Positions 500-35,737 of a stretch of DNA of 64,000 nucleotides are shown piece after piece. The notes below the pieces were generated by a model. The model did no database searches and was not told where the DNA came from. It was given only the letters and a program-made list of their open reading frames with translations. Every line of letters starts with the position of its first letter. The first letter of the stretch is position 1. The stretch is taken from assembly GCA_964645795.1 (NCBI GenBank), contig CAZYCL010000001.1, forward strand, positions 95,194 to 159,193. Direction: 5' to 3'. Origin of the DNA: an uncultured Planctomycetales bacterium. Lineage in GTDB: Bacteria; Omnitrophota; Gorgyraeia; Gygaellales; Profunditerraquicolaceae. Both the position numbers and the translations under genes were made by a program.

Positions 500-1522
500 T
501 CAATCTTCAGCGAAATTACCTTCGATATCCTGGATATCTAGATTAAAAAATCTCTTCTTGCTGAGTTCGGCGCTTTTTACCAACTTCCAATAATTGTGCT
601 TCCAGGAACGATATTTCCAATCAGGGCAATTCTTGCATAATTCTAATTTGTGTCCCTGCTTATTCAAATGCATCTTTCTAAAATAGTTAAAACCCTCGCT
701 ATGCCAAATATCCTTAATCTGTTTTTCATGAACGTTTCCCATGTCAGTCGTAGCCCTGATATCAAAGCCGCAAACCATCACCTTGCCGCGCGAATCAATG
801 TTAAGCCGCTCAAATAGAAAGGGACATGGAATATGCTCCTCGGGTTCCAAATAGGGATGCGGATCTGCTGATTCCCCCGGATCACTTATATTCCAAGTAA
901 GGTATTTCCTTTTCTGTAGATTATCAACATAACGGCTCCAAAAACTTATTGCCTTATCGACATCGACCCCGACTTGGTTAATAATGCTGGCAATAATTTT
1001 TGTAGGGCTTTTTAATCTATCCCTGAGCTTGCGCATTCGTTTTACGTTTACCACGAGCTTATCCCAATCAAGCCCTTTTCGTACACGCGAATAAGTCGCG
1101 GGATCGCCGGCATCAACACTAAACTCAATCATATCGATACCCGCGTTAAGAAGACGGGTGCTATTCTCTTCGTTAAACAGTGAACCATTGGTAATAAGAC
1201 CGACCTTTGCACCGACCTTCTTAGCGTATTCAAAAAGCTCAACTGCCTTAGCATGCAGCATCGGTTCGCCTCCGCCGGAAATACGCAACCATGCCTTATA
1301 TTGGCCACATTGGTCAGCGATAATTTTGAACGTCTCTCCGGACATTATGGGGGTGTCTTTATAGGTTAAGCGGATATTCGAATTGGTATAAGGACAGTTG
1401 GGGCACCGTGCATTGCAGATATAAACGAACGAGAGTACGCACATCATGGGGAACTCTTCTGCCTCTGCCCTTACCCCATAATACGACTGAGTATGTTCTA
1501 TATCCTGGTTATTTTCCGTCAT
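500..1522 (-). CDS. Radical SAM enzyme with a C-terminal Cys-rich SPASM/twitch-like domain
   Basis: CNARCPNC (CxxxCxxC) near the N-terminus. C-terminal CPF..GKVMVC and CKNCPDW cysteine clusters. Paralogous in architecture to the 4277-5215 protein. Confidence 0.8.
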   Translation of the reverse strand: MTENNQDIEHTQSYYGVRAEAEEFPMMCVLSFVYICNARCPNCPYTNSNIRLTYKDTPIMSGETFKIIADQCGQYKAWLRISGGGEPMLHAKAVELFEYAKKVGAKVGLITNGSLFNEENSTRLLNAGIDMIEFSVDAGDPATYSRVRKGLDWDKLVVNVKRMRKLRDRLKSPTKIIASIINQVGVDVDKAISFWSRYVDNLQKRKYLTWNISDPGESADPHPYLEPEEHIPCPFLFERLNIDSRGKVMVCGFDIRATTDMGNVHEKQIKDIWHSEGFNYFRKMHLNKQGHKLELCKNCPDWKYRSWKHNYWKLVKSAELSKKRFFNLDIQDIEGNFAED

Positions 1523-1911
1523 TTTTTCTCAAAATTGATCGACTGAACCAATCTTTCTGCATGAACAAATCTTCAGATAACTCCTCTTTATCCTACCTTT
1601 ATTAAAAACGGACCTTTCATCTTAAAGATTAATTACAGTTGAAATAATTAAATCAATGCCTATTTTCAGATAACCCTCGCCAGGTCATTTGTCTTTCGGA
1701 ATTTAACCTTCTTCTCAAGCAATGCTAAACAAATTATATGCTCAAGAAAAGTCAAAATCATAATAAAAACGGTGCTTTTGCCATACGATCGCCACTTGTC
1801 AGAACCTTTACTTGATTTCTCCAGGGTAGACAACATTAAATTGTTATATCTCTCGATGCCTTGCTTTTGCTAAAGCGCGCTCTTAATAATGCTACCTTGT
1901 ATTTCATGACA

Positions 1912-2376
1912 TTAACCTTCTTTACCTGAAAGAGCGAAAGATTTAATATATTTGAAACCTTTACGTATGGCACCTTGATATTCTCTTCCTTCCATTCCCT
2001 TCTTAACAAATCCTTTTTTTTCGAAGGCTCTCTGCGCTATTGCATTCCCCTCCCATACCCAAGCCCACATAGAATTCAAACCACTCTTTTTGGCAACACC
2101 CTCTGCCAAATCAAGTAATTGAGAGCCCAAACCCTTACTTGGCTCATTCACGAAAAAAGCTAATTCGTTTTTACGCGCAAGATAAATAATCAAAACCCCC
2201 TGAAGGATATCGTCTTCTACTATGCCAATTATTTCGATATTGGCGTGCGCAAACCACTCTTTGGTCTGCTCTTCCTCTACTGGCTGAGTAATTAGTAGCT
2301 CTTTATATCTATTCCTCAGTTGAACGTATTGACTGATGAATTCTGGTTCATGTTTTAAGTCCACTACTCTCATCAT
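1912..2376 (-). CDS. GNAT-family N-acetyltransferase
   Basis: 154 aa. Central motif QGVLIIYLARKNELAFFVNEPSKGLGSQLL and C-terminal AFEKKGF are typical of the GNAT fold. Confidence 0.55.
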   Translation of the reverse strand: MMRVVDLKHEPEFISQYVQLRNRYKELLITQPVEEEQTKEWFAHANIEIIGIVEDDILQGVLIIYLARKNELAFFVNEPSKGLGSQLLDLAEGVAKKSGLNSMWAWVWEGNAIAQRAFEKKGFVKKGMEGREYQGAIRKGFKYIKSFALSGKEG

Positions 2377-2406
2377 TACTAATCTCGAAATACTGTCTTT
2401 AATAAG

Positions 2407-4269
2407 TTAATTAAAATACGTCTCCCACCAGAGCTGGAACATCATAAGGTTCCAGATATGGCCTGCAAGCCTTTTCTCCCCTAAATAATAGGCCTTAACC
2501 ATAGAGGTAACGGCATCCGACTTGAAATAGCCGTGTTTCTTAAGTCTTTCCTTTGACAGAACGCCTAAAACATAGTTCTTAATATCGCCTCTTAACCAAT
2601 CAAAGATAGGCAAAACAAAACCTTCTTTAGCCCGTGCTGTAATACCTTCAGGCAATAAATCTTTGACCGCCTCTTTAAGGATATATTTGACAACGGCGCC
2701 TTTAATTTTCATAGCATCGGGAACGGTTGCGCAAAACTCTACCAGCCGATGGTCTAAAAAGGGGGAGCGGATTTCGACTGAATGTGCCATTGATAAAAAA
2801 TCAACAAATGCCAATACCTGATCCGGAAGCTGCGTATTCCATTCCATCTCCAATATTCTATTAAGAGGACTGCGAGCAGAAAGACCGTTAAAATACGAAG
2901 AAATGAAACCGAGGCTTGATATTTCTTTTAAATTAGCCTTAAATTTATCGCTTAACAAATTGTCTTTTTCCGAATCGGAAAAAAGATATAACATGTACCG
3001 CCATTTGACTTCGTCGCCATTACTCTTCATAAACAAATTACACAGAAAATCCATCTCGCAAGGCTTAAATAGATTCCTCTCATCATCGCTAAGCGTACCG
3101 CTGCAAATTTTCTCGTAAAGCCGCTGATAATGGAACATCGGCTGCGCTACGCGATGCGTAAGATAGCTGCCGAACAATTCGTCTGCAGCATCTCCGGAAA
3201 GCGCGACTTTCACGTGTTTGCTAATAAGCTTAGTGAGAAAATATGTGGAAATAGTTCCGGAAAAAGGCTGATCGAAACTGGCCACAACACAAGGGAGTTC
3301 ATTAACTAATTCATTATGCGACATAATATATTCATAATGTTCGGTATGGAAGCGCTTTGAAACTTTCCGTGAGAAAAATAGATCAGCTTCCTTGTTCTTT
3401 AACTCATCTTCATAACCCAAGGAAAATGTCTTTACCGGCTGATTGGTAAATTGTGCCATCAGAGCGACAACGGTACTGGAATCAACGCCGCCACTTAGAT
3501 ACGCCCCAAACGGAACATCACAGTTCATGCGTAGCCTTACCGCATCTCCAAGAAGCGAAAGGATGTTCTTTTTTACAAATGCTTCCTCATAATCTTTATT
3601 TTCGTCAAATTTTACTTTCCACCAACGTGAAATAGCAGTTCCGCCGTTAACGAATGTCAAAATACTGCCGGGGTCTAGTGCAAATATATTCTTGTAGGCC
3701 GTTAGTGGAGCAGGGACATGCTTAAAAGTAAAGTAATGATGAAGAGCCTCGTAATTAATCTCCTGGGAATACGACGGGTAAGTAAGAATGCTTTTTATCT
3801 CCGAGGCAAAGACGAGGTTTCCGCCGATCTGAGAATAAAAGAGCGGCTTTACGCCCATGCGGTCCCTGACAAGAACAAGCCTGTCTCTGTTTTTGTCCCA
3901 AAGCGCAATGGCGAACATGCCGTTAAGTTTATGGCAAAAGTCAAGACCATATGCCTCATAAAGGTGCACGATTACTTCGGTATCAGAATGGTGTGTATAA
4001 AAACGGTGGCCCTTTTCTTCCAGCTCTTTGCGCAAGCTGCTAAAATTATAGATCTCGCCGTTAAAGACTAACCAAATACTGCTGTCTTCATTGTGGATCG
4101 GTTGGTGTCCGCTTGCTATGTCGATAATACTTAACCTCCGGATGCCCAGGTTGATCTTCCCGTCGGAAAACAACCCTTCTTCATCCGGGCCGCGGTGGAG
4201 CAGGGAATCCGTCATCCTCTGTAAAACCGTCCTGTTATTTTTTCCTGTAAATCCGCAAATCCCGCACAT
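2407..4269 (-). CDS. Asparagine synthetase (glutamine-hydrolysing)-like amidotransferase; PseA-like candidate for acetamidino formation on a nonulosonic acid
   Basis: Begins MCGICGF (Cys2 Ntn nucleophile). Carries the SGGVDSS PP-loop ATP-pyrophosphatase motif. 620 aa. AsnB homologues in flagellin glycosylation islands (PseA) make Pse5Am. Confidence 0.85.
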   Translation of the reverse strand: MCGICGFTGKNNRTVLQRMTDSLLHRGPDEEGLFSDGKINLGIRRLSIIDIASGHQPIHNEDSSIWLVFNGEIYNFSSLRKELEEKGHRFYTHHSDTEVIVHLYEAYGLDFCHKLNGMFAIALWDKNRDRLVLVRDRMGVKPLFYSQIGGNLVFASEIKSILTYPSYSQEINYEALHHYFTFKHVPAPLTAYKNIFALDPGSILTFVNGGTAISRWWKVKFDENKDYEEAFVKKNILSLLGDAVRLRMNCDVPFGAYLSGGVDSSTVVALMAQFTNQPVKTFSLGYEDELKNKEADLFFSRKVSKRFHTEHYEYIMSHNELVNELPCVVASFDQPFSGTISTYFLTKLISKHVKVALSGDAADELFGSYLTHRVAQPMFHYQRLYEKICSGTLSDDERNLFKPCEMDFLCNLFMKSNGDEVKWRYMLYLFSDSEKDNLLSDKFKANLKEISSLGFISSYFNGLSARSPLNRILEMEWNTQLPDQVLAFVDFLSMAHSVEIRSPFLDHRLVEFCATVPDAMKIKGAVVKYILKEAVKDLLPEGITARAKEGFVLPIFDWLRGDIKNYVLGVLSKERLKKHGYFKSDAVTSMVKAYYLGEKRLAGHIWNLMMFQLWWETYFN

Positions 4270-4276
4270 AAAACAT

Positions 4277-5915: not shown

Positions 5916-7775
5916 CTATAGAATGAAAAATCTCCTTATCCCGCAGGAAACCAGCATCGAGTAAAACGACTGCCGGACAAGCTGCAGGCTTGCGCGCAGT
6001 TTTTTTAAAACATCCGACATGCGCAGGATGACCTCGCTGTGGCCCTTAGCCTTGATACGGTTGGTCTCAACCGCTATTCGCATGGACTCTATATCATTTT
6101 TTATCCTATAATCCAGCAAGCTAAGCGTCTTATAGCGGAAAAGCTCGTAGAAATATCCTTGAGTTGCCGCAAAAATACGTTTCTCCTGTTTAGGGGAGAA
6201 ATCCTTCTCGTTCTTGATATAAGCGGCTGCATCGGCCAGGACAGATTCGCCTTTCTTAAGGGAACCGTCGAGCGCCTTGAGCTCCCGCAGGGCCTTTTTA
6301 GCCTTACGGATATACCCCGCATCGAGAACCGGACGGATCTTGCCAAGGCTCTGCTTAAATATAGGGCCTGTATCGAAAGGCGCATTTTTTACGAAGCCAT
6401 CAAATACTTCATCGAGGGTCATGAGCCGCGCACCCTCTATCCTGGCGCCGCCGGCAGTAGCATTGATGAAAGCAATATCGGGAAACCTCCTGATATAACC
6501 CTCCATCCATCGCAAGAATATATAGAAGTAGCGGAAGGTCACCACCTTATCCTCGTAGTTACCTATGGCCTTCATATAATTTATATCATCGGGCCCTATG
6601 TTATAACGCTTATCCTCATGCATGGTGCCTTTGGCGTGAGAACGGTCATTCTCCAGGCAAAGATCCTGACCCACGAAAACAATGGGGTTAAGCCCCAATT
6701 TTACCGCCAGATCCAAGGCGCAGTTAGCTACCGATCCCCCTGATTCAAGATACATCTTCTCTGCCGTTTCCTTTCCCAGCATATAACTTAAAAACGGATT
6801 GGCCATGGAATCAAAAAAGAAGACCCGCGGATAAAACATGGAGACGATCTTAGGAGAGAGGCAGATCTCGGCAAAAAGCCACATGCCGGATGTATCCGTT
6901 ATCCCCTCAAGCTGCTTAAGGACGATGTCGGAAGCATCCAGTACGACCACTATATCCGGCTTGATCCCGTTATTAACCAGAGGCCTTAATGATGTCCCTA
7001 CGCTTATGATAACCGCCTTGGATTGAAATTTCTTGAGTTGCCCGATATTTTTATCCAGAGAAGGACCTGCGGCCACGATAACCCCGGTCCTATCTTTAAA
7101 CGATTTAAAAATAACAGATAAAGGAACGGATTTTAAAGCATCCGGAAGGTTGGTCAAAGAGTTGCTTTCCCAATAAGGCGCCAATTCGTCTATCGCGTTA
7201 TAATCACAGAGTTTGCGCGATGTCACGGTATTTATAAAATCAAGCACCCGGGTAAAATAACCTTCGAATACCCTGCGGTAAGCCGATAGATAAATAATCT
7301 CGGTTTTATAGAGCCCGCTGATTAGATGCGGCGCTATGGCATCTATCATCTTCTGGGGATCGGGATCAACGAAAAGGAGGATGCGCGGATTGGACAGAAT
7401 TTCGCTAAGATCGCCATGGGTAAGCGCGGACTTGAAGATCTCAAGAGAAGGCTCTATGATACAGATGGTGCCGTTAATTTGGGCGCTTTTACGCAGTTGA
7501 TCCACAAGATAGCCAAAACCCATGCCCAGCACAAAAATCACCTGCGTATCCGACAGATCCCTATCTGCCAGCAGATTAAAGGCCTCCTTTACCGGGTCAA
7601 ACAGGCTGTGAAACAGTATCCTTGGCTTATCCTCTGCCCTATAGAAGAAGGTCGCCAGGCCCCGCCGGCTCATCCGGACTTCGATGGATCCCTCAGGCGA
7701 AACGCCTTCAAGCCGTTCAGCAAGCTTTGCGTTGACCCTTTTTAACTCCTCGATATTCTTTGCATAATAGTCCAT
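5916..7775 (-). CDS. maf: Motility accessory factor (Maf, DUF115/MptE-like); putative flagellin nonulosonic-acid transferase
   Basis: Central VIVAAGPSLDKNIG...DIVVVLDASD block typical of DUF115. About 620 aa and located next to fliD. Start chosen at the internal Met (MDYYAKNIEELK) so that it abuts the upstream small ORF. Confidence 0.65.
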   Translation of the reverse strand: MDYYAKNIEELKRVNAKLAERLEGVSPEGSIEVRMSRRGLATFFYRAEDKPRILFHSLFDPVKEAFNLLADRDLSDTQVIFVLGMGFGYLVDQLRKSAQINGTICIIEPSLEIFKSALTHGDLSEILSNPRILLFVDPDPQKMIDAIAPHLISGLYKTEIIYLSAYRRVFEGYFTRVLDFINTVTSRKLCDYNAIDELAPYWESNSLTNLPDALKSVPLSVIFKSFKDRTGVIVAAGPSLDKNIGQLKKFQSKAVIISVGTSLRPLVNNGIKPDIVVVLDASDIVLKQLEGITDTSGMWLFAEICLSPKIVSMFYPRVFFFDSMANPFLSYMLGKETAEKMYLESGGSVANCALDLAVKLGLNPIVFVGQDLCLENDRSHAKGTMHEDKRYNIGPDDINYMKAIGNYEDKVVTFRYFYIFLRWMEGYIRRFPDIAFINATAGGARIEGARLMTLDEVFDGFVKNAPFDTGPIFKQSLGKIRPVLDAGYIRKAKKALRELKALDGSLKKGESVLADAAAYIKNEKDFSPKQEKRIFAATQGYFYELFRYKTLSLLDYRIKNDIESMRIAVETNRIKAKGHSEVILRMSDVLKKLRASLQLVRQSFYSMLVSCGIRRFFIL

Positions 7776-10086: not shown

Positions 10087-10920
10087 CTATCCTCCGCCAA
10101 TCAGACCCATCGCCAAGGTGGCGGCCGCGTTTGCCTGCGCTAATGCGGCAACACCAGACTGAACGATTATCTGTGAATTGGTAAGGTTGGTTGTTTCTGC
10201 CGCGATGTCGGCATCATAGATCCTGGAACGAGCTGCTTTAAGGTTAGTGCTGTAGGACTCCTGGGCTGCGGTTGAACGCATCCAACCACTTGCCTGGGCA
10301 CCTAATGCAGCTATTGTCGGACCAACGGTTACCCTTACCGCAGATTTTATCTGCAGGATAGCGCTGTCCGCGCGCTGGATGGTGGAAATTGCCAATCCGG
10401 TAAGAGCTAAACCGCTACCACCGGCGGTCATCGTCTGGATGGACATAGTGACTACATCGGCTGCGGAAGCACCGGTCTGGATGGTTACGCCGGCCAAACT
10501 TCCGTTCATTAATACCCTGCCGTTGTAGTTGGCATTGGTCGTCAACCTCTGAATTTCGCTGATCAACTCCTGAAATTCATAGTTGTATGTGTTTCTCTGA
10601 TCGGGGGTCATCAAACCATTCTTTGCCAGGTATGCCAACTCGTTCATCCTCTGCAAATCGTCCTGGACGACGCGCAGAAATGAATCGGCGGTATTCAAGG
10701 CATCGATGGCCATATACAGGTTATTGGTACCGACATCAGTACCAGTAATCTGGAACTGCATCTGCAGGGCCATTAGATAACCTGCCGGATCGTCGTATGC
10801 GTGATTGATTCTGGAACCAGAAGAGAGTTTCTCTAGAGCCGATGTCAACGCCCTCTGCGTATACGTGAGGTTCGTCTGGGCTACCAGAGACATCGTATTG
10901 GTGAGAATTCTAAAACCCAT
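10087..10920 (-). CDS. fliC: Flagellin; short form with D0/D1 domains only
   Basis: N-terminus MGFRILTNTMSLVAQTNL and C-terminus ...QANAAATLAMGLIGG are canonical flagellin. 277 aa with a Ser/Thr-rich middle. AAGGAGG ribosome-binding site. Confidence 0.9.
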   Translation of the reverse strand: MGFRILTNTMSLVAQTNLTYTQRALTSALEKLSSGSRINHAYDDPAGYLMALQMQFQITGTDVGTNNLYMAIDALNTADSFLRVVQDDLQRMNELAYLAKNGLMTPDQRNTYNYEFQELISEIQRLTTNANYNGRVLMNGSLAGVTIQTGASAADVVTMSIQTMTAGGSGLALTGLAISTIQRADSAILQIKSAVRVTVGPTIAALGAQASGWMRSTAAQESYSTNLKAARSRIYDADIAAETTNLTNSQIIVQSGVAALAQANAAATLAMGLIGGG

Positions 10921-15878: not shown

Positions 15879-16528
15879 AAGGCAATAAGATAGTGCGACA
15901 TGGCGAAGAAACCTGAATGCAGTACTTCGTCGTTCATGCCGAATATAAACACGTTTTTGAAGTATCTTCTCAAGTCGTTCTTTAATTCGGTTCCTGTCTT
16001 AGGATTCACATGCCCCTTTTTACTCCAATAAGAAGCATACCTTTGGCTTTCTTTGCTTGGAGTACCGATAATACAGATACCTGTTTTCTTTAGTGATTTG
16101 CTTATATTGAGCAAAAACATCGCCTCCTTGCTTTTAGGGATATGCTCCAGGACATCCAGGGAATAAGCTGCGTCATGAAGGGGGCGTACTGGCTTCTTAG
16201 TTAAATCCGCAACCTTAAAGACTACGTTATAATCTTTGCGTTTTACTTGGCAATCCTCAATAAAAACCGGATCAAAATCAACTGCCACAACCTTACCTGC
16301 TTCCTTCGCCACCAGCTCCGCTCCCACCCCGTCTCCGCAGCCGACCTCAAGGACGGTTTTGCATCCCGAGAGCATCTTAGCCACAAACTTATACCGAGCT
16401 AACATAAATAAGAGCCGTTTTGGGTCGGATCTCCAAAAATGGCTGGTATGCATGCCTAACTCAACTGCACCGATTTTTTCATATTCTTTTACTATCTGAT
16501 TGTACTGTTGCTCTTTGGTCGTCCTCAT
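15854..16528 (-). CDS. Class I SAM-dependent methyltransferase
   Basis: VLEVGCGDGVGAELVAKEAGKVVAVDFD motif. Start moved to the internal Met (MRTTKEQQY) to remove the 107-nt overlap with the upstream gene. Confidence 0.7.
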   Translation of the reverse strand: MRTTKEQQYNQIVKEYEKIGAVELGMHTSHFWRSDPKRLLFMLARYKFVAKMLSGCKTVLEVGCGDGVGAELVAKEAGKVVAVDFDPVFIEDCQVKRKDYNVVFKVADLTKKPVRPLHDAAYSLDVLEHIPKSKEAMFLLNISKSLKKTGICIIGTPSKESQRYASYWSKKGHVNPKTGTELKNDLRRYFKNVFIFGMNDEVLHSGFFAMSHYLIALCANPRQE

Positions 16529-16538
16529 AATTGCTCCT

Positions 16539-23815: not shown

Positions 23816-23818
23816 GGA

Positions 23819-24757: not shown

Positions 24758-24770
24758 TATCTGCCCCCTA

Positions 24771-26678
24771 TTAATTGCCGCCTCTCAAGAGGCCTTCTTT
24801 TACAATATCCAGCACCCATTGCATGCGGTGCTTCACGGTATGCTCTCTGAGAAGCCGCTCCTGCCCTCTTCTGGCTATCTCCATGCGTTGGTCATCGTGT
24901 TTTAAATAGAACTCGATCTTTTCGCGCAGCTCTTCTTTAGTCCTGAATACCTCTATCTCTTTACCCAACTCAAAAAGTTCGCCTATGCCTCCGGGCTCCT
25001 CATCCTCGGCGGTTAATCGAGTAAGGAGAAAACCTCCCGCGGCAATGGTATCAAATATGCGGGGGTGGTTATTGGTAGCCGCGTGCATATTCAGGTTGAT
25101 CTTGGCGGCATTCACGATCTTACAGATCTCGTCGCCGTAAGCGGCGCTTCCCCGGGCGCTGGCCTTAAAACGGGGGTCAAGCGACCAGCCTTTGCCGTAA
25201 AGCGAAAGGTTCATATCCCTGATGCTTTCAAGATAGGGCAGACGAAGGCTGGCAGCGGCAAGACCGCTCCAGAGGTAAGTGGTTAAAATCACGTTTTCGC
25301 TGATATCGCCGTAAATTTGCCTGCACTTTCTGCAGGCGTCTTCGTTCATCTCTATTTTACCGAATTTCTTCTTAGCCTGCTGATAAATTTCTCGAAAGGC
25401 AGCGAAATCGTACGAATCGGCTTCGCGCATTGCCTCAATTAAATACTCTACCACATCTGCCGGGATAAAGCTATTCGCCGAAGCATAATCAGGATAATGG
25501 CATATAAACGCGATATCGCTGCCGTATTTTTTCCTGTCTTCATCGCAAAGCTCCAGGCTCCGGTAGACATCGGTATCGGCTCCGAGATACAAACGGTGGA
25601 TCCTGTCTTTCTCAAAACCTAATTTCTCCAAATCGTCAATAAACATCGCTGCCACGATAAATATCTGATCATGCGGGCCGATCTTTTTATCCGCCCGGAT
25701 ACCGGGATTAAAGATAAAAGGCATATAATCCTGAATCCAGCTGGCCGTGATTAACCCGGGATGCTCATACGACTCACCCGCAAGATGATTGATCTTAAAA
25801 TAAATGTCAGGCATGAACTCGCGTAACATCTTGTAAAAATAGACCTGTGATATCAATAGCGTATCCGATTCTAAGACTTGCGTCTGGCAGCCAAGAAGGT
25901 TAAAACCTTTTATGCAGGTGCGCATAGAATGCTGCATATAGGCAGTCGTGGTATTAAGCTCTCCCAAAACGCGTAACCTGCGCCCTGATTTTTCAGATAA
26001 AACATCGACAAGCCTGCTGCGGTCGATCTGGCGGTAATGGGAACTGACCTCAAGGAGGCAGCGCTGCGCGTCTTCGTACATTCCCTTAACCAAAGAAAAA
26101 ATGCTTTTCTGGGCGTCTTGGTAAAAAGCGTGGTCCTCTGCGGCGCAAAAGACAGCACCGAGGAAAGGGATCTGGCCCTGATAGCCGCTGCGCAAGAAAT
26201 CCGTAAATGAATTTACGGCATCTTGTCCGGCAAATATGTAAACTTTGCGGGATTCGAACAATTGCCGCAAATCAAAATGGCGCATTATGGCCTTAAGGAT
26301 CCCCGTATGACGCTCGATTACGAAAAAAACATCCGACTGCTCGCTCCTCGAACATGCGTAAAACAGGCGCACTCCGGCATCAAGCCCAAAAAAGATAAAG
26401 GCGCCGTTATGAGCGGACATTTTAGCCAGATAGCCGTTCGCCTCGGGGAAAATCTCTTCTCTGTAATACTTTTTCAGCTCATGCATCAGCCTGCGTTCCC
26501 CGCCTTTTTTGACAAAAACCCCCAGATCTCCCTCTTCATTAACTGCGGCCAACTCAAACTCAGAGCCGTTATCGGCAGCCAACTGCTGATAAAGAGGATA
26601 ATTATGGATCTTTAATGAAGCCAGGTTCTCCTCATAGAAGTTTTCAGACAACATTTGCCCCTCTTCGGCCCGTTTCAT
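24771..26678 (-). CDS. Maf-like N-terminal region fused to a CgeB/GT1-like C-terminal domain; putative flagellin glycan transferase
   Basis: The N-terminus (FYEENLASLKIHNYPLYQQL) resembles Maf/DUF115 starts. The last ~150 aa (LYGKGW...RTKEELREKIEFYLKHDDQRMEIARRGQERLLREHT) look like a CgeB-type glycosyltransferase C-terminus. Confidence 0.45.
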   Translation of the reverse strand: MKRAEEGQMLSENFYEENLASLKIHNYPLYQQLAADNGSEFELAAVNEEGDLGVFVKKGGERRLMHELKKYYREEIFPEANGYLAKMSAHNGAFIFFGLDAGVRLFYACSRSEQSDVFFVIERHTGILKAIMRHFDLRQLFESRKVYIFAGQDAVNSFTDFLRSGYQGQIPFLGAVFCAAEDHAFYQDAQKSIFSLVKGMYEDAQRCLLEVSSHYRQIDRSRLVDVLSEKSGRRLRVLGELNTTTAYMQHSMRTCIKGFNLLGCQTQVLESDTLLISQVYFYKMLREFMPDIYFKINHLAGESYEHPGLITASWIQDYMPFIFNPGIRADKKIGPHDQIFIVAAMFIDDLEKLGFEKDRIHRLYLGADTDVYRSLELCDEDRKKYGSDIAFICHYPDYASANSFIPADVVEYLIEAMREADSYDFAAFREIYQQAKKKFGKIEMNEDACRKCRQIYGDISENVILTTYLWSGLAAASLRLPYLESIRDMNLSLYGKGWSLDPRFKASARGSAAYGDEICKIVNAAKINLNMHAATNNHPRIFDTIAAGGFLLTRLTAEDEEPGGIGELFELGKEIEVFRTKEELREKIEFYLKHDDQRMEIARRGQERLLREHTVKHRMQWVLDIVKEGLLRGGN

Positions 26679-28443: not shown

Positions 28444-30063
28444 CTACCCTCCGTTTTTCAATGCCGCCAGCTGCGCTATCCTGGCTCTTGCCTCTTGATT
28501 ATCCGGGTTTATTTTTAGCACCCTTTCGTATTCCTTAAGCGCGTTGTCTTTATCGCCTTTGGCCTGGTGGCATTTGCCAAGGCATAAGTGGGCGACTTCG
28601 TGTTCAGGATAAAACTTGATCACCCGGTTAAAATCCCTTATCGCCACATCAAACCTTCCTTCACGCATATTGATATTATTTAGAAAATTAATATTTAAGT
28701 TTGTTTCAAACCATTTACCCTGCAGATACTCGGGGTCAAATTCGGGTGTCTTTATGCTGCCGATGGTATACTTTAACTTAGATAACTGGAAATCTCCGAC
28801 AAGATACCCCTTTTCTTTGCATATATCATACATAGCAGTACCGGGCAGAGGCGTAGCAATATTCATCGCTACCCAATCAAGGCCTACGGTCCTGATAAAA
28901 TTAAGCGTTTCTTCGACTTGAGATTTATTTTCATCGGGAAAACCGATGATAAAAAACCCCTTGGTGTGTAATCCTAAGGCGCGCATCTTCTTGACTAAAG
29001 GCGCTACCCTGGACAGATCCAGCGGTTTATGCACTATATTATCAAGCACCTCCTGCGAGCCAGATTCAATAGCGATAGCCACCGAAAAGCATCCCGATTC
29101 TTTCATAAGTTCCACGGTCGATTCATCGAGGGCAAAAACCGCCAGGCCGTTAGGCGCGCACCAGGAGATGTTGAATTTTTGTGCGATCATGTTGCTAAAT
29201 ATCTCTTTTGCCCGCGGGATATTAAAAGTCATATTGTCGTCTTCAAAATGTATCTCCCTTATGCCATAATCCCTCACTAAAATTCCTATTTCTTCCAGAA
29301 CGTTGCGGCTGGAGCGGATGCGGTACTTTTTGCCCCATAACTTTAGGGCCGAACAAAAAATACAACGGGCGGGACAGCCGCGCGAAGTGATCATGGTGGC
29401 AAAAGGCATGCGCAGAAAATCGCCGTGCGGCTGGGATATTTCGGAGTATAACTTCATGGGGATAAGGTGCCTGGCGGGAAACGGGATTGAATCCAGATCT
29501 TCAATAAACTTTGTTTTCTGGTTAATGCGCAGGCTGCCGCCCTTGCGATAAGCCAAACCGTCAAAATCATCAAACTCTAGGTTCTTCTCCAGGCGCTCGA
29601 TCAGCTCCGGCAGCGCATAATCGCCCTCTCCCAAGACAGCAAAATCAACCAACTCATCCTCCATCACCAGCTGCGGAAAGGTTGTCGGATGGGCTCCGCC
29701 CATGACCGTAATTATATCTTTGTCCGCATCCTTGGCCAACCGGCATAAGTTGTGCGCATCCCTATATTTATTGGTAAGCACGCAGGATACGCCTACCATA
29801 TCAGGCTTGAATTCGATTATCCTTTCCTTTATGCCGCTGTCGGTAAGGCCGTAGCGGATCATGCCTGCGGAGAGCTTGGAAGGGGACAAAAACCCTTCCA
29901 CCAGGCAATCAACGATCTTGACATCATAACCCAGCTTTTCCAGCACCGCAGCAACATAGGCGATCCCCAGCGGAGGCACGACCGGCATGCGCTGCTGCTG
30001 CACGGCGCCTTCAGGCAATGTAACCGGCGGCTCAAATAATATTATCTTCTTTATCTTTTTCAC
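28444..30063 (-). CDS. B12-binding (class B) radical SAM enzyme with a C-terminal TPR
   Basis: N-terminal cobalamin-binding Rossmann region (VGVSCVLTNKY...VMGGAHPT). TSRGCPARCIFCS radical SAM motif. C-terminal TPR (EYERVLKINPDNQEA). Confidence 0.85.
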   Translation of the reverse strand: MKKIKKIILFEPPVTLPEGAVQQQRMPVVPPLGIAYVAAVLEKLGYDVKIVDCLVEGFLSPSKLSAGMIRYGLTDSGIKERIIEFKPDMVGVSCVLTNKYRDAHNLCRLAKDADKDIITVMGGAHPTTFPQLVMEDELVDFAVLGEGDYALPELIERLEKNLEFDDFDGLAYRKGGSLRINQKTKFIEDLDSIPFPARHLIPMKLYSEISQPHGDFLRMPFATMITSRGCPARCIFCSALKLWGKKYRIRSSRNVLEEIGILVRDYGIREIHFEDDNMTFNIPRAKEIFSNMIAQKFNISWCAPNGLAVFALDESTVELMKESGCFSVAIAIESGSQEVLDNIVHKPLDLSRVAPLVKKMRALGLHTKGFFIIGFPDENKSQVEETLNFIRTVGLDWVAMNIATPLPGTAMYDICKEKGYLVGDFQLSKLKYTIGSIKTPEFDPEYLQGKWFETNLNINFLNNINMREGRFDVAIRDFNRVIKFYPEHEVAHLCLGKCHQAKGDKDNALKEYERVLKINPDNQEARARIAQLAALKNGG

Positions 30064-30121
30064 TTTTCCTCAATGCTGCATTTTTAGATACAGACAAAAA
30101 TCTTGGCAATTTTGGCTATTT

Positions 30122-31729
30122 TCAGGAATTAAGCCTTTCTTTGGCTTCACTGGAATCCGGGTTAAGCTCTAACGCTGTTCTCCACTCTCTGGCCGCTTCC
30201 TCAACCATGCCTTTCTTTTTATAGGCATCGCCTAAGAAGAGGTGGCCGTACCAGATATGCGGATAAAACTCCAGGACGGACTGAAAATCCCTGATCGCTT
30301 CGTCAATATCATATTTAATCAAATTAGGGTTATTCCTGAAATTTATGTCGATATTGGCTTCCTCTTTGACCTTCTCAACGTAATCGCCGTCAAACTCAGG
30401 AGTCTGGATATTGCCGGCGTAGAAACTGTGCGCGAAATCCACGGATTCGTCCTTTAGATAGCGCTTATTCTTGCAAATCTCATAAATCTTGGTCCCCACC
30501 AGAGGCGTGGCGATAAAAAACAGGGTCCAGTCCAGCTCAAGGCTTTTGGCGAAATCCACTGTCTTTTGCATGGTCTTCTTAGTCTCTCCGGGAAAGCCTA
30601 AAATAAAAAATCCCTTGGTCTTCATGCCCAGCGAGCGCGCCTTATCTGCGAGCGGTTTGGCGCGGTTAAGCTTTATCGGTTTGTGCATCAATTTATCCAG
30701 GACATGCTGGTCTCCGGATTCGACGGCCAGCGAAATGCTGTAACAGCCGCTTTGCGCCATTTTTTCCAGCAACTCCTCGTCTAAGGAATAAATCGCCAGG
30801 CCGCTGGGGACGGTCCAACTGATATTAAATTTTCTATCGATTATCCCGTTAAATATCTCCAGGGCGCGCTTTTTGTTGGAGGTTAAATTGTCGTCTTCAA
30901 AGTGTATTTCCTTGACTCCGTACTTTTTGATGAGAAACTCAATTTCTTCAAGGATGCTTTTGCTTGAGCGGTAGCGCGGGACCTTTCCCCATAAAAGCTC
31001 TATTGAGCAGAATGTGCATTTGGCAGGGCAGCCGCGCGAGCTGATAATCGAAGCGAAAGGTTTGTTTTTGTAGCCGCTGTGCGCCGAGCCAAGCCGGCTG
31101 TACTCCTGCATGCTTAAAAGGTGCCGCGCGGGAAAAGGCAGGGTATCGAGATTAGGGATAAAATGCGCCTTGTGGACACAATTAATTTTTCCTTCGTGAC
31201 GATAGGCGATACCATCGAGCATCCTTGGGTCTCCGCCTGACTTAATAATGCCTAACAACTGCAAGAAAGTCATTTCTCCTTCGCCTAAAATTACGTAATC
31301 AATGTTTATTTCATTTTCCAGGAGCTCTCTGGCAATAGCCGTAGGATGCACCCCCCCTACAGCCACCAAACACCGGGGGTTGACTTTCTTAACAATGCGG
31401 CTGGCGTTGCGCATATCCCAATCCTTGTTTGAAAAAAGACACGAAATGCCGACAATATCGGGATTTTCTTTACGCAGGATCTCTTCGATCTGCTGGTCAG
31501 TCAGGCCATAACGCAACATCCCTTCGTTATATTTTTGCTGCCCCTGCCCTGCCCCCTCCAGTAGCGCATCAATAATCTTTACCTCATAGCCTGAATCCTC
31601 CAGCACCGCTGCGATATAGGCCAGCCCCAAAGGCGCGAATACGCTGACGCGACAACGCTCTTTAGAGAAATCCGCGGGCCTGGTCACCGGAGGGTCTATC
31701 AGCAATATCTTTTTTATCCTACTGGTCAT
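30122..31729 (-). CDS. B12-binding radical SAM enzyme with a C-terminal TPR; tandem paralog of the 28444-30063 protein
   Basis: Roughly 55-60% identical by eye to the neighbouring protein over the core (FPARHL...SSRGCPAKCTFCS...EIHFEDDN...KFNISW). TPR tail EWRTALELNPDSSEA. Confidence 0.85.
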   Translation of the reverse strand: MTSRIKKILLIDPPVTRPADFSKERCRVSVFAPLGLAYIAAVLEDSGYEVKIIDALLEGAGQGQQKYNEGMLRYGLTDQQIEEILRKENPDIVGISCLFSNKDWDMRNASRIVKKVNPRCLVAVGGVHPTAIARELLENEINIDYVILGEGEMTFLQLLGIIKSGGDPRMLDGIAYRHEGKINCVHKAHFIPNLDTLPFPARHLLSMQEYSRLGSAHSGYKNKPFASIISSRGCPAKCTFCSIELLWGKVPRYRSSKSILEEIEFLIKKYGVKEIHFEDDNLTSNKKRALEIFNGIIDRKFNISWTVPSGLAIYSLDEELLEKMAQSGCYSISLAVESGDQHVLDKLMHKPIKLNRAKPLADKARSLGMKTKGFFILGFPGETKKTMQKTVDFAKSLELDWTLFFIATPLVGTKIYEICKNKRYLKDESVDFAHSFYAGNIQTPEFDGDYVEKVKEEANIDINFRNNPNLIKYDIDEAIRDFQSVLEFYPHIWYGHLFLGDAYKKKGMVEEAAREWRTALELNPDSSEAKERLNS

Positions 31730-33162
31730 TTCTTTCTTGCGGCAATGGACTGCGCGGTGACGTTGCGGCCGCGCAACTTTGGCGTCCTCTTATAATAAAA
31801 CTCTAACAGCTTCTTAACTCCGGGCACTCCCCTAAAGTAAAAAAATAGTTTCGATAACCAAAGCGCGGTATACGGTATAACGCTTGCCAACTGGTAATAA
31901 AAATCGGATTCGTCATAGTCAGAATACCCGCGCTCGTAGGGGTTGGTTCTCGGGACTACCCCTCTTTGTTTATATATCTCTTCCAATTCTGTACGGGGAT
32001 AGGCTGTTAAGGCATAAAGCGTCAAGGAAAACGGCCGGGCAATTTTAAGAAGAAGCTTTATGGTCTGGTTGCGGTCACGATCCTCTTCCAGGTCGTTTTG
32101 TATAATGATATCGTAGTAAGGATACACTTGGTTGCGGCTTAATATACGCGATGAACCGACTACGGCGCTTTTATTGAACGACCGATGGTAGATCAGGCGG
32201 TGCGTACGGCTGCTGCCCGACTGTATGCCGATCTGAGTAAACATCAAACCCGCATCCTTTAATTTCTTTAGTACGCCGTCATCGAAACTGCCCGGCACAA
32301 GCCTTACGATAAAAGGCAGCCCTACCTCTTTCGTATAACGTTCGATAAATTCGTCATTCCACTGCCTGGAAGTCAGAAATTGATCATCAATAAAATTAAC
32401 GAATTTGATATTCGGGATATACTCTAAGGCATATTTGATCTCGGCAATGACGTGACCGACGCTTCGTTTCCTTATCCTGTTACCCTCTTTATAGAGGCTA
32501 TTTAAATAGCTGTTACAGCAATAGCTGCAGCTAAAGGGGCAGCCTCGCGTTGCCATTAAAGTATAATCCTCGCCCCGGTAATTTGAATACCTTACATACT
32601 CCTCTTGGCTGAACCGGCGAAGGCCGAATCTGTCAATAACATAAAAATCAGACCAGCCGTACCGCGGGAAGGCAATACTGTCTAAGTCGCTATTTAACTG
32701 CGGAGGATTTATGATGCACTTGCCTTCTTTTGTCTTTAAGCCGATGCCGGGTATCGAAGAAATATCCCTTCCGGTAAAAAAACATTGCAGTAGCTTAAGA
32801 AACGCTACCTCTCCTTCCCCGATACATACGCTATCTGCATATTCAAGGCATTCCTGCGGCATAAGCGTCGGGTGTATCCCTCCCCATGTAATGTGAGCGC
32901 GGTCAAGAAATTTTTTTATATCCGAGGTTAGGCGGCGGCTGAAATCCATCCCATCGGTCATCAGCGATATGCCGACTACCGAGAAGGCCTCTGCGTTCAG
33001 CAGCTCCCTCAATTGCTCGCTATTATATTCGTCTTGCCTTGGGACAAAAAGGAGCTTTACATCGATAGAAGCTGCCTTTAATGCCGAATACAGCGAAAGA
33101 CAGCTTAAATTACGGTGACTGTCGCGTAAAATAGAAATAAGGAGAACGCTTGGTTCAGGCAT
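31726..33162 (-). CDS. B12-binding radical SAM enzyme
   Basis: VVGISLMTDG...ITWGGIHPT B12 region and MATRGCPFSCSYCCNS. No TPR tail. Confidence 0.8.
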   Translation of the reverse strand: MPEPSVLLISILRDSHRNLSCLSLYSALKAASIDVKLLFVPRQDEYNSEQLRELLNAEAFSVVGISLMTDGMDFSRRLTSDIKKFLDRAHITWGGIHPTLMPQECLEYADSVCIGEGEVAFLKLLQCFFTGRDISSIPGIGLKTKEGKCIINPPQLNSDLDSIAFPRYGWSDFYVIDRFGLRRFSQEEYVRYSNYRGEDYTLMATRGCPFSCSYCCNSYLNSLYKEGNRIRKRSVGHVIAEIKYALEYIPNIKFVNFIDDQFLTSRQWNDEFIERYTKEVGLPFIVRLVPGSFDDGVLKKLKDAGLMFTQIGIQSGSSRTHRLIYHRSFNKSAVVGSSRILSRNQVYPYYDIIIQNDLEEDRDRNQTIKLLLKIARPFSLTLYALTAYPRTELEEIYKQRGVVPRTNPYERGYSDYDESDFYYQLASVIPYTALWLSKLFFYFRGVPGVKKLLEFYYKRTPKLRGRNVTAQSIAARKK

Positions 33163-33164
33163 TG

Positions 33165-34301
33165 CTAAAAACTCAGGCGTCTGTTCAAGAGACGATCATC
33201 CAGCTTAACAGCCCTCAATATATTAGTAATCTTTTTATCCGTATTCAAGTCGCGGTAGGGATTGCCTCCTTTTATCCGTTTATAGCTATTCTTTCTAAAC
33301 CGCTTTATGGCCTGGATAATCTTACGTTTAGAATAGGGCACATCGACAACATTGGCCGCGCGCTCCCTACCGTCCTGACGGCTGCCGATATTTACCACAG
33401 GCGTGCCGAAAAACGGCGCCTCAACTATACCGCTGGAAGAATTGCCTATCAGTACCGAGGCATATTTGAGCAGCCCCAGATAATAAGGACGCTCGATATT
33501 CTTGAATATCCTGATAAAAGGAAACTTGCGATACTTTAATATTTCCTTAATCATGCTTTGCCCGCCCATATCGCAATTGGGATAGAATATTACGGTTTGG
33601 GTTTTAAAATGCCTTGCCGCCTCAAGCGTCCGGCGCATCTGCAAGGCCGCATCCCGATATTCATTCGCCACCGGATGCTGGATCACTAAAAATAGGGCCT
33701 TATTAAGATCTATCCCCAGCTTTCTTCGGATCTCTTCCTTTGAACAGGACTGTCCGAGAATGGCTTTGGATACGGCCAGGGTCCCGACATATTTGATGCG
33801 CCATGGCTCCTCCCCCATTCTTAAAAGCCTCTTGCAGCTTGCCTTTGTATTTGCCAAATGAAGATGAGCAAACCTGGATAAGCTGTGCCTTATGGCATCA
33901 TCCATGCCTCCGGAAACATCGCCTCCGGATATATGGACAATGGGCAGATTCAAGAATGCCGCGGCAAGCCCTGCCGCAAGCATCTCGATCCTGTCAGCCT
34001 CAAGCACTACGATATCAGGCTCTAATTTTTTAAAAATACGCGCAAAACCCGGTACCGCCCTGGCAAATGAACCGGCCAGTTGCAAGCCGCCTTCTTTCCC
34101 GGAAAAAATATCCAGTTTTGCGCTTATTTTGAAGCCATCCTTGCGGATGATATCTACCGATGAACCAAAACGCCGCATAAGATGCATCCCGCAGACAACC
34201 AATTGCAGCCTTAAATCAGCGCTGTCCCTGATGCGCTCTAAAAACGGCTTCATCACCCCGTATTCTGCCCGCGTTCCCGTAATAACGCATATTTTTCTCA
34301 T
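33165..34301 (-). CDS. neuC: UDP-N-acetylglucosamine 2-epimerase (hydrolysing), NeuC/LegG family
   Basis: KICVITGTRAEYGVMKP...VHISGGDVSGG...YLGLLKYASVLIGNSSSGIVEAPFFGTPVVNIG is the NeuC signature. Confidence 0.85.
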   Translation of the reverse strand: MRKICVITGTRAEYGVMKPFLERIRDSADLRLQLVVCGMHLMRRFGSSVDIIRKDGFKISAKLDIFSGKEGGLQLAGSFARAVPGFARIFKKLEPDIVVLEADRIEMLAAGLAAAFLNLPIVHISGGDVSGGMDDAIRHSLSRFAHLHLANTKASCKRLLRMGEEPWRIKYVGTLAVSKAILGQSCSKEEIRRKLGIDLNKALFLVIQHPVANEYRDAALQMRRTLEAARHFKTQTVIFYPNCDMGGQSMIKEILKYRKFPFIRIFKNIERPYYLGLLKYASVLIGNSSSGIVEAPFFGTPVVNIGSRQDGRERAANVVDVPYSKRKIIQAIKRFRKNSYKRIKGGNPYRDLNTDKKITNILRAVKLDDRLLNRRLSF

Positions 34302-35737
34302 GCCGCGTACTGGAATTTTCCTTTACAAAATTGGCATAAAGACAAATTTTCGAGCCTGTGATTCAATAAAGAACACTGCAACATCTTCATGCGCTCGGAG
34401 CTCCAGACCGCATCAACGCTGCAGTCTTTCGCATTGCCGAGCTCCATCTCTGCGTTAACATCATAGCAGCACGGAGTGATGGTGCCATCGCATAGAATGT
34501 TCAGTTTCTCAAGAGATTCCGGACACAGCGTATCCTGCCCAGCCGCGCGTCCCGGAATAATTGCCGCTTCTTTGAACGAAAACAACTTTCCGTCACGGCC
34601 AAAGAAACTCCCTCCCAGCCTGCGGTCAAGCACAGAGAACCCGCTGTAATCAACCAGGGGCAGGAGCGAAGATAAAAAACCAGAAGTTTTCCTGGTGCCT
34701 TCGGGATCGCTAAACGGTATGACCGAGGTTATGCCCAGCTTTATCTGGTCCTCAAGCCCCATTTCTTTCCTTTCACGGTTAACCGTCTTTATGATCCTGC
34801 AAATCTTGTTCCAGCTGCTGCCCTTACGCACCGACTCATAGCTCTCTTTGCTGAAACCGTCAACAGAAAACCAGATGCCCGAAGGCCGGGCTTCCAGTAT
34901 CTTTTTTCTCCGCTCGCAATCTGCCAGCGCAAATCCATTGGTCTGTAAAGCAAGGTATATCCCCTCTTGCCTGATCTTTGATATCAAGGTATCGATCCCC
35001 GGATGCAGCAGCGGCTCTCCCATATAATAAAATTTGATAACGCCGGGCACTTTCCAATTCTTAATTATGGCTCTATCCAAAACTAAATGCGGGATGCTTA
35101 TCTCAATACTCCTCGCGCTCCAGCCTGAAATTATCTTATCTAAAAGGGCCTCATCAAGATACCCGATGTTTCTGGCCATCTTGTGGCGGGGGCACATCAG
35201 GCATTTTATGTCGCAATTGTTGGTAGGTTCGACCTGAAGCACAAAGGGGGATTTGGGCACAGGATAAATCCCTCCCTCCACGCATCCCGATTCGTTCCTG
35301 ATGCACCAAACAAGGTGGCGTTTCAACATGCTCTCCGCTTCTTTACGCAAAAGAAGGTCTTCTACATCGTGCGCTATGAGACGCGCCTTTACCGCCGCCT
35401 TGTTGCTGTATTTTAACGCCAGGGTATTGTCCAGCTTAAAAACGGTATGAAATTCTGAGAGCGCCGCCAATTGCAACGCCACCTGTCCGACAAAACGCTT
35501 GGTTTCAATATCCGGATTCTTGAACAAAAGCAAATTTTCATAAAGCTCGCAGATTTCGTTTAAATGCGCCAGGCCTCCCGAGAAATCATCGTCGTAAATC
35601 TTGGCTATTCCCGCGCAGTAACGCACTGCCAAATCCTGCGGCCGGTGCATCACGATGCTTTCAGTCAGGTCGATAATATCTTTTATCCTGCGCTGTTTTG
35701 AGAGCTCATACAGTCTGTTCTTGAGTTCGCAATCCAT
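34298..35737 (-). CDS. Radical SAM enzyme with a full SPASM-like C-terminal domain and a ~150-aa N-terminal helical extension
   Basis: NNCDIKCLMCPRH. C-terminus CPESLEKLNILCDGTITPCCYD....C....C..C. Confidence 0.8.
   Translation of the reverse strand: MDCELKNRLYELSKQRRIKDIIDLTESIVMHRPQDLAVRYCAGIAKIYDDDFSGGLAHLNEICELYENLLLFKNPDIETKRFVGQVALQLAALSEFHTVFKLDNTLALKYSNKAAVKARLIAHDVEDLLLRKEAESMLKRHLVWCIRNESGCVEGGIYPVPKSPFVLQVEPTNNCDIKCLMCPRHKMARNIGYLDEALLDKIISGWSARSIEISIPHLVLDRAIIKNWKVPGVIKFYYMGEPLLHPGIDTLISKIRQEGIYLALQTNGFALADCERRKKILEARPSGIWFSVDGFSKESYESVRKGSSWNKICRIIKTVNRERKEMGLEDQIKLGITSVIPFSDPEGTRKTSGFLSSLLPLVDYSGFSVLDRRLGGSFFGRDGKLFSFKEAAIIPGRAAGQDTLCPESLEKLNILCDGTITPCCYDVNAEMELGNAKDCSVDAVWSSERMKMLQCSLLNHRLENLSLCQFCKGKFQYAA

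Follow-up and report, generated by a model that had tools for sequence, protein, structure and literature searches.

Nine radical S-adenosylmethionine (SAM) enzymes are encoded within about 36 kb of a flagellar gene region of an uncultured Planctomycetales bacterium (Omnitrophota in GTDB), which raises the question of what molecules they modify. The region lies in a stretch of 64,000 nucleotides of contig CAZYCL010000001.1 (assembly GCA_964645795.1), referred to here as the window. A preliminary description of this DNA, made from the sequence alone, had singled out six of the enzymes, labelled R1 to R6 in order of position (Table 1), as SPASM/twitch-type proteins for which no precursor peptide could be recognised, and had proposed either sugar intermediates or flagellin itself as their target; the other three, which are B12-binding proteins (B1–B3), had been overlooked. 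The analysis presented here indicates that the six are encoded in a probable Maf-dependent glycosylation island and that, apart from the unclassified R5, they are of predicted twitch type, with R1 to R5 belonging to two portable gene cassettes that probably tailor nucleotide sugars. We infer their substrates and, by analogy with characterised enzymes, the types of reaction that they catalyse.

The window contains a flagellar regulon (FlhA/FlhB, FliM, FlgA/H/I, FlgK/L, FlgM/N, FliW/CsrA, flagellin and FliD) with a glycosylation island interleaved among the flagellar genes, and every gene between positions 1 and 38,000, including R1 to R6, is located on the minus strand. The island encodes Maf, NeuB, NeuC, a cytidylyltransferase, glycosyltransferases and five or six methyltransferases, together with a FemAB-like protein, an AsnB-type amidotransferase, a GNAT protein, a split transketolase and an RmlD-type reductase. 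Past coordinate 1, on the same contig, are found a GT1 glycosyltransferase, WbqC, an RmlB/LegB-like dehydratase, a PseC-like aminotransferase, FliS, a PseB-like dehydratase and a second aminotransferase. This is the gene content of a Maf-type flagellin nonulosonic-acid island, with Maf (PF01973) present, NeuB and NeuC above their cutoffs and the cytidylyltransferase reaching only 79 bits with the PseF model. Maf enzymes O-glycosylate Ser and Thr residues of flagellin with nonulosonic acids (PMC11339370), and the island probably serves Maf-dependent flagellin glycosylation, making a Neu/Leg-type nonulosonic acid plus further sugars.

Domain architecture and auxiliary cysteines

The six open reading frames (ORFs) translate cleanly and each contains one CxxxCxxC motif, located at residue 25–41 in R1 to R5 and at residue 175 in R6. 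All score above the gathering threshold of the Pfam Radical_SAM model (PF04055; 35–82 bits against 29.5, E-values 1.6e-8 to 5.9e-23), and motif and model together place all six in the radical SAM superfamily. Identical copies of the proteins are present on a 100-kb public metagenome contig, where the gene calls agree with the coordinates of the preliminary description; calls on identical public contigs also back the R3 start at 19493 and the 299-residue form of R5. The Pfam SPASM model (PF13186) is matched above its gathering score by R1, R2, R4 and R6. R3 falls below it (17.5 against 21.5 bits), with E-values of 0.01 or less in 11 of the 17 members of its family, and no match was obtained for R5 or for any of the 23 members of the R5 family.

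The SPASM signature, CX9-15GX4C-gap-CX2CX5CX3C-gap-C, comprises seven Cys and supports two auxiliary clusters, whereas the twitch domain represents a shortened, one-cluster form that is recognised by Cys residues before and after a β-hairpin (CX9-15GX4C) and by two more Cys past the next helix (PMC6231123). In BtrN, four Cys fully ligate the auxiliary cluster of the twitch domain (PMC6231123, PMC9012708). A motif scan showed that CX2CX5CX3C is absent from all six proteins, which sets them apart from two-cluster SPASM enzymes, while CX9-15GX4C is present in five of the six and a late CX2-3C pair in all of them.

The four invariant Cys in the R1 family alignment (C233, C251, C296 and C299) follow the spacing C-x17-C-x44-C-x2-C, which is shared by R2 (C231-x17-C249-x44-C294-x2-C297) and R6 (family-invariant C405, C423, C424, C468 and C471) and is exactly that of BtrN. 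The R1 family profile has BtrN as its best solved relative (E-value 4e-12), with C251, C296 and C299 of R1 aligned to C187, C232 and C235 of BtrN. BtrN is also the closest solved structure to the C-terminal domains of R2, R4 (family-invariant C265, C283, C327 and C331) and R6, so that R1, R2, R4 and R6 combine the twitch motif, a SPASM score above gathering and BtrN as best match.

R3 departs from CX9-15GX4C in its Gly spacing and is assigned to the twitch type through its homology to R4; the two families align over their full length (hhalign, 99.9%, E-value 3e-35), including the four auxiliary Cys columns. The R3 family has invariant C271, C289, C329 and C333, plus C179, and the best solved relatives of R3 are the twitch enzymes SkfB and MoaA. 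R5 contains the hairpin motif, as CX15(GX4)C, and five family-invariant Cys (C220, C236, C266, C272 and C275). Profile comparison aligns it with R4 in the core alone, and its best solved relative is CteB, whose SPASM region it matches weakly.

Based on the Cys patterns, family alignments and profile matches, R1 to R4 and R6 are predicted to be twitch-type enzymes with one auxiliary iron–sulfur (Fe-S) site and not two-cluster SPASM enzymes, and the Cys cluster of R5, although conserved, appears to belong to no recognised class. The pairing of CxxxCxxC with a C-terminal Cys cluster, as first described, is therefore borne out in all six by motif, Pfam and family-wide Cys conservation, and the SPASM/twitch assignment stands for the class but is narrowed to the single-cluster twitch type, with R5 falling outside the models.

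The radical SAM cores of R1, R3 and R4 resemble those of BlsE, DesII, AbmM and SpeY, which act on sugars or nucleosides, and the core of R4 is nearest to BlsE, AbmM and DesII. In the NCBIfam scan, no family scored above its cutoff for any of R1 to R6. The best scores were 105 bits for W_rSAM_matur (cutoff 380), 86 for spiroSPASM (250) and 68 for N_Twi_rSAM (170), and those of rSAM_desII and rSAM_BlsE were far under their cutoffs. None of the six qualifies as an anaerobic sulfatase-maturating enzyme (anSME), the best score with TIGR03942 being 59 bits (R3) against a cutoff of 349. Judged by these sequence comparisons, none of R1 to R6 belongs to the BtrN, BlsE, DesII, AbmM or SpeY families.

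Two portable cassettes for probable nucleotide-sugar tailoring

R1 and R2 are part of a conserved gene set, cassette A, with the order R2-AsnB-(GNAT or formyltransferase)-R1-WbqC-4,6-dehydratase-DegT aminotransferase. In a survey of 80 genomic loci from many phyla, fetched via R1 and probed with all island proteins, R1 was present in 80, AsnB in 69, WbqC in 67, R2 in 67, the dehydratase in 62 and the DegT aminotransferase in 57, with R1 and R2 co-occurring in 67 of the 80. Full 10-kb flanks are available for 38 loci, of which 31 contain all five core genes, three NeuB and one flagellin. The R1 family comprises 1474 matches in Nitrospirota, Desulfobacterota, Alphaproteobacteria and others, many of them about 70% identical; within GTDB representatives none exceeds 72% identity to R1.

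The AsnB-like protein starts at 4269 (MCGICGF), 18 codons upstream of the public call, and in the full ORF Cys2, the catalytic residue of a class II glutamine amidotransferase, is recovered. Methylocapsa acidiphila B2, a cultured alphaproteobacterium, has a sugar-type Formyl_trans_N gene (locus L064, 12949-13689, plus strand) that replaces GNAT and lies between AsnB and WbqC; such a swap of acetyl- and formyltransferase is expected if cassette A N-acylates an amino sugar. For WbqC, no relative was found in NCBIfam or the PDB, and published work on it was uninformative. Just past coordinate 1 of the window, a gene for a 543-residue GT1 glycosyltransferase (locus L007, 11042-12673) is placed between R1 and WbqC, which are adjacent elsewhere with a median gap of 15 bp.

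R3, R4 and R5 belong to cassette B, which has the order R5-R4-(GT9)-split transketolase-methyltransferase-R3-RmlD-like reductase, followed by more methyltransferases. Fifty-two metagenome loci of at least 7 kb each contained R4 in 50 cases, R5 in 31, R3 in 27, Maf in five and flagellin in one; counts for the transketolase halves (TktN and TktC), the 220-residue methyltransferase (MT220) and GT9 are listed in Table 1. R5 and R4 are neighbours in 25 loci, separated by a median of −1 bp, and the R4 family comprises 793 matches at about 60% identity, including a Scalindua homologue that lies among heptose-pathway genes (GmhA/HldE-type).

The preliminary description had taken R1/R2 and R3/R4 as paralogue pairs produced by local duplication. 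Both pairs are homologous but ancient, with 27% (R1/R2) and 22.5% (R3/R4) identity in an all-against-all BLAST comparison, which rules out recent duplication of these genes; the sole recent pair among the radical SAM proteins is that of the tandem paralogues B1 and B2, at 46%. Orthologues of R1 to R4 that are 55–75% identical are found in other phyla, where their partners co-occur with them, and the cassettes were therefore acquired pre-assembled and did not arise by local copying. R1/R2 and R3/R4/R5 are co-inherited partners of two portable sugar cassettes.

Search for a peptide substrate

SPASM/twitch enzymes are often maturases of peptides that are ribosomally synthesised and modified after translation (RiPPs; PMC9012708), and the island could in principle be a RiPP cluster in which the six enzymes mature the product of an overlooked small precursor gene. 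Every ORF of 15–110 residues was listed in all gaps on both strands, the gaps between cassette genes were measured in over 130 loci, and the gap ORFs were compared by tblastn with 168 related loci (2.2 Mb). No conserved leader-like small ORF was found, and no gap ORF has a homologue in the 168 loci, in agreement with the earlier remark that a precursor gene is missing. The accompanying remark that the minus-strand gaps are too small to hide one is not strictly true, as a 389-bp AT-rich gap (1523-1911), the only one of notable size next to a radical SAM gene in the window, lies upstream of R1, separates it from GNAT and holds a 56-residue ORF (1666-1836, minus strand). This ORF, which might otherwise speak for a peptide, is not conserved, and the gap has no Rfam match. 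It is also lineage-specific: GNAT and R1 are separated by a median of −7 bp and at most 113 bp in 22 other genomes, and the median gaps between cassette genes outside this genome range from −7 to 56 bp.

AsnB homologues are also known to act as lasso cyclases, but the protein encoded here has an intact Cys2 glutaminase domain and is therefore an amidotransferase and not lasso cyclase-like. RiPP radical SAM maturases are marked by an adjacent precursor gene and usually by an N-terminal RiPP recognition element (RRE) or PqqD-like domain. No PqqD/RRE domain was detected by Pfam in R1 to R6; the position of CxxxCxxC leaves no room for one in R1 to R5, and the N-terminal domain of R6 is an all-helical TPR domain. 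Protease and exporter genes of a RiPP cluster are likewise lacking, and the conserved partners of the enzymes are nucleoside diphosphate (NDP)-sugar enzymes. With nothing conserved in the gap ORFs, the gap lengths or the tblastn comparison, a RiPP cluster is hardly credible and was dropped.

Probable destination of the cassette sugars

Across phyla, the cassettes turn up in O-antigen, S-layer and other glycan contexts and almost never beside flagellin, which opens the question of whether they tailor the sugars of another glycoconjugate, such as the O-antigen of lipopolysaccharide (LPS), capsule or S-layer, with their flagellar location being incidental. Cassette A adjoins RmlA/C/B and an ABC-2 transporter in one setting and GT2, nucleotidyltransferase and SLH-domain genes in another, and in M. 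acidiphila B2 it lies among housekeeping genes and glycosyltransferases, not flagellar genes, with a glycosyltransferase coming after the cassette; the single flagellin among the 38 fully flanked loci is in keeping with this. In Geotalea toluenoxydans the cassette B genes (R5-R4-GT9-TktN-TktC-MT-R3) are remote from flagellar genes, and GT9 is typically an LPS heptosyltransferase family. In the genome studied here, however, the two cassettes lie enclosed among FlgN, FlgM/FlgK, flagellin, Maf and FliS, on one strand and with tiny gaps, and the window and the 10 kb beyond it showed no Wzx/Wzy, ABC-2 transporter or lipid-carrier priming transferase. Maf also accompanies cassette B in the five metagenome loci mentioned above. 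An incidental location is thus considered quite unlikely.

R6 and its neighbours

R6 is rare. A word-indexed search returned only 11 full-length relatives, and an exhaustive profile search of 1.84 billion representatives yielded about 30 full-length clusters, as against thousands of shorter twitch proteins. Its structure model (pLDDT, predicted local distance difference test, 84) consists of a helical-repeat N-terminal domain (residues 1–140), the radical SAM core and the twitch domain, and BtrN, DesII and BlsE rank first in a Foldseek search, with superposition on BtrN at 2.5 Å over 192 residues. The gene is located between NeuC and NeuB in the window, and on the syntenic contig L177 a gene for a 174-residue coiled-coil protein and NeuB lie on one side of it and NeuC on the other. 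Distant R6 homologues are found beside MotA/MotB, beside a glycosyltransferase or in an unrelated setting.

In a different role, a protein or flagellin-attached glycan would be the target of R6 and possibly also of B1 and B2, which carry TPRs. The TPR domain would bind flagellin, the 173-residue coiled-coil protein encoded next to R6 or a flagellar export/chaperone component, and the radical domain would then change a residue or a bound sugar by crosslinking, epimerisation or oxidation. The N-terminal domain is kept throughout the R6 family and B1 and B2 carry C-terminal TPRs, but enzyme–enzyme docking is also a role of TPR domains, and R6 is devoid of an RRE. Flagellar genes surround R6 or its homologue in three of five independent contexts (the window, L177 and L178, the last beside MotA/MotB), whereas in both syntenic loci R6 lies inside the nonulosonic-acid set, between NeuC and NeuB, and its top Foldseek matches are sugar-acting enzymes. 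The gene of the repeat-containing coiled-coil protein ends directly at the R6 start codon, and the protein has a sole homologue, 57% identical, in L177, yet it is missing beside the distant R6 homologues. Action of R6 on a protein or an attached glycan is accordingly regarded as unlikely, if less so than an incidental flagellar location of the cassettes. The coiled-coil protein was also considered as the R6 substrate itself and set aside, its W-repeat motif being confined to the window and L177; it is kept as a low-probability lead.

Proposed functions

Sugar intermediates, the first of the two targets originally proposed, remain the favoured substrates of R1 to R5, which are fixed parts of sugar-nucleotide cassettes across phyla, and the target of R6 is less clear. 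Flagellin, the second, is indeed free of Cys and rich in Ser and Thr, as had been noted, but the distribution of the cassettes speaks against it for R1 to R5, and it may hold for R6 alone, with its TPR domain.

In cassette A, an NDP-hexose would undergo 4,6-dehydration and transamination to an amino-deoxy sugar, which would then be N-acylated and amidated. R1 and R2 would abstract hydrogen from a sugar C-H bond, with the auxiliary cluster taking up the second electron, as has been proposed for BtrN (PMC9012708). The outcome would be oxidation, independent of NAD (nicotinamide adenine dinucleotide), to a ketone that would enter transamination or rearrangement, or perhaps epimerisation or deamination. 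In cassette B, a keto-sugar, a thiamine-dependent two-carbon unit and methyl groups would be combined into an extended or branched methylated sugar through three radical steps and an RmlD-type reduction. R6 would tailor the nonulosonic-acid branch or dock to a protein partner through its TPR domain.

Several observations weigh against the view of the six as twitch-type sugar-tailoring enzymes. R5 has no match to the SPASM/twitch model. The structure model of R1 is poor (mean pLDDT 58.6, with the twitch region below 50) and was therefore left out of the fold search. None of the five families has a characterised member or an NCBIfam model at cutoff. The TPR domain of R6 suggests interaction with a protein, and distant R6 homologues stand beside MotA/MotB or alone, outside sugar clusters. 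Twitch-type tailoring of nucleotide sugars for the Maf-dependent island is nevertheless the probable reading.

A bolder extension is that at least one cassette carries out unprecedented radical sugar chemistry, giving rise to a new class of sugar, present on flagellin as well as in the surface glycans of many environmental bacteria, and that R6 is a TPR-guided modifier of a flagellar protein or protein-bound glycan; this is possible but is put forward tentatively, as something we would sooner doubt than expect. The candidate chemistry may be radical C-C formation, ring rearrangement or deoxygenation, coupled to the two-carbon unit of the cassette B transketolase or to the AsnB/WbqC steps of cassette A.

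Other features of the island

The coordinates of the radical SAM genes and of the other island genes are collected in Table 1.

Table 1. Radical SAM genes and further features of the glycosylation island (positions within the window)
Feature	Position	Strand	Evidence
R1, twitch-type radical SAM, 340 aa	500..1522	-	Pfam Radical_SAM and SPASM above gathering; BtrN Cys alignment; cassette A
GNAT acetyltransferase, cassette A	1912..2376	-	Acetyltransf_1; between AsnB and R1 in 22 loci
AsnB-like glutamine amidotransferase, cassette A	2407..4269	-	Pfam GATase_6, GATase_7, Asn_synthase; N-terminal Cys2
R2, twitch-type radical SAM, 312 aa	4277..5215	-	Pfam Radical_SAM and SPASM above gathering; cassette A
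Maf (MptE-like), putative flagellin nonulosonic-acid transferase	5916..7775	-	PF01973, Maf_flag10_N
Flagellin, 277 aa, no Cys, 50 Ser+Thr	10087..10920	-	Flagellin_N, Flagellin_C; composition
Distal cassette B: 383-aa methyltransferase-like protein, 224-aa methyltransferase, 360-aa FkbM-type methyltransferase	14706..17621	-	All three alongside R3/R4 in L102, L119-121 and L161
RmlD-type NDP-4-keto-sugar reductase	17611..18426	-	RmlD_sub_bind, 144 bits
R3, radical SAM with twitch-like domain, 356 aa	18423..19493	-	Radical_SAM E 5.9e-23; SPASM sub-threshold; cassette B
SAM methyltransferase, 220 aa (MT220), cassette B	19495..20157	-	In 29/52 loci
Split transketolase, C-terminal half (TktC)	20151..21071	-	Transket_pyr/Transketolase_C; 31/52 loci
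Split transketolase, N-terminal half (TktN)	21068..21850	-	Transketolase_N; 33/52 loci
R4, twitch-type radical SAM, 354 aa	21851..22915	-	Radical_SAM and SPASM above gathering; cassette B
R5, radical SAM, 299 aa, unclassified five-Cys C-terminal cluster	22916..23815	-	Radical_SAM only; cassette B
GT9 glycosyltransferase (312 aa) and 635-aa Glyco_trans_1_2 protein	23819..26678	-	GT9 with cassette B in 22/52 loci
Three B12-binding radical SAM proteins: B1, B2 (C-terminal TPR each), B3	28444..33162	-	Pfam B12-binding, Radical_SAM, TPR
NeuC-type hydrolysing UDP-GlcNAc 2-epimerase	33165..34301	-	TIGR03568, 403 bits against cutoff 236
R6, TPR-like N-terminal domain (1-140) and twitch radical SAM domain, 479 aa	34298..35737	-	
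Coiled-coil protein, 173 aa, three W-x-LGEE[RK]x[RK]RE repeats	35738..36259	-	Stop codon abuts R6 start; no Pfam/NCBIfam family
NeuB-type nonulosonate synthase	36278..37324	-	TIGR03569, 404.7 bits against cutoff 399.65
CMP-sugar synthetase-like protein	37369..38007	-	PseF model, 79 bits, below cutoff

The flagellin is very short, consisting of the N- and C-terminal domains only, with 18% Ser+Thr, yet it is located in a very large glycosylation island. Directly upstream of Maf, and overlapping its start, is a 68-residue ORF (7775-7981, minus strand) with weak Rrf2/winged-helix matches, which is called on two of three public contigs. The Maf-FliD-flagellin block is flanked by two small conserved proteins, one of 187 residues with TP0873_N and DUF8042 matches (5250-5813, minus strand) and one of 165 residues with no family match (9504-10001, minus strand). 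B3 differs from B1 and B2 in lacking TPRs. An Rfam scan of the window detected no RNA family.

Comparison with known systems and significance

The island resembles the Maf islands of Campylobacter, Clostridium botulinum and Geobacillus in that Maf, a nonulosonate synthase, a NeuC-type epimerase and a cytidine monophosphate (CMP)-transferase adjoin flagellin, FliD and FliS, and is unlike them in its nine radical SAM genes. The flagellin-glycosylation literature retrieved makes no mention of radical SAM enzymes as island components, and the literature searched yielded nothing relevant that ties radical SAM enzymes to flagellin glycosylation, nonulosonic acid, Maf, O-antigen or nucleotide sugars.

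BtrN, the 2-deoxy-scyllo-inosamine (DOIA) dehydrogenase of butirosin biosynthesis (PDB 4M7T/4M7S), likewise has a four-Cys twitch domain behind its radical SAM core, and the R1 family aligns to its residues 180-240, including the LCKNC segment. The substrate of BtrN is small and carbohydrate-like, and the step that it catalyses adjoins an aminotransferase reaction (PMC9012708). The similarity is limited to the twitch domain and the generic core, which alone gives independent E-values of 3 to 7. With significant alignment in the twitch segment only and no btr-like neighbours, R1 to R6 do not qualify as BtrN orthologues; 2-deoxystreptamine genes are absent here, and each NDP-sugar/surface-glycan cassette contains two or three radical SAM enzymes.

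DesII, BlsE, AbmM and SpeY, which act on NDP-sugar, nucleoside-sugar or aminocyclitol substrates, provide the best core matches for R1, R3 and R4 and also share the R6 fold, but with E-values of only 1e-4 to 1e-8. The substrate of DesII is the product of a 4,6-dehydratase and a DesI-type aminotransferase, the same pair that occurs in cassette A. DesII is not known to have a twitch domain, and all four enzymes come from actinomycete antibiotic pathways and not from loci for surface glycans.

The SPASM RiPP maturases and anSME (AlbA, PqqE, CteB, SuiB and anSME) have the Pfam SPASM model and the overall fold in common with the proteins studied here, and the best solved relatives of R5 and R3 are CteB and the twitch sactisynthase SkfB respectively. 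The six enzymes differ in having no CX2CX5CX3C motif, RRE, precursor peptide or sulfatase partner, and in NCBIfam maturase scores that are far under the cutoffs.

To our knowledge, sugar-acting radical SAM enzymes have been described almost solely from antibiotic pathways. The kind of enzyme is known; what is new is the arrangement of twitch radical SAM sugar enzymes as multi-enzyme, widespread surface-glycan cassettes. Those with two and three radical SAM enzymes occur, at 55–75% identity, in hundreds to thousands of environmental genomes, spread over Nitrospirota, Desulfobacterota, Alphaproteobacteria, Planctomycetota, Omnitrophota, Elusimicrobiota and Bacillota. The cassettes are also present in several cultured strains, among them M. 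acidiphila B2, M. polymorpha RX1, Dongia sedimenti R-7, Roseomonas ATCC 49961 and G. toluenoxydans, which makes direct testing feasible. Recognition of the cassettes would correct the habit of taking every SPASM-annotated gene for a RiPP maturase, and their chemistry, once solved, would define new surface-sugar structures and new NAD-independent sugar-tailoring catalysts.

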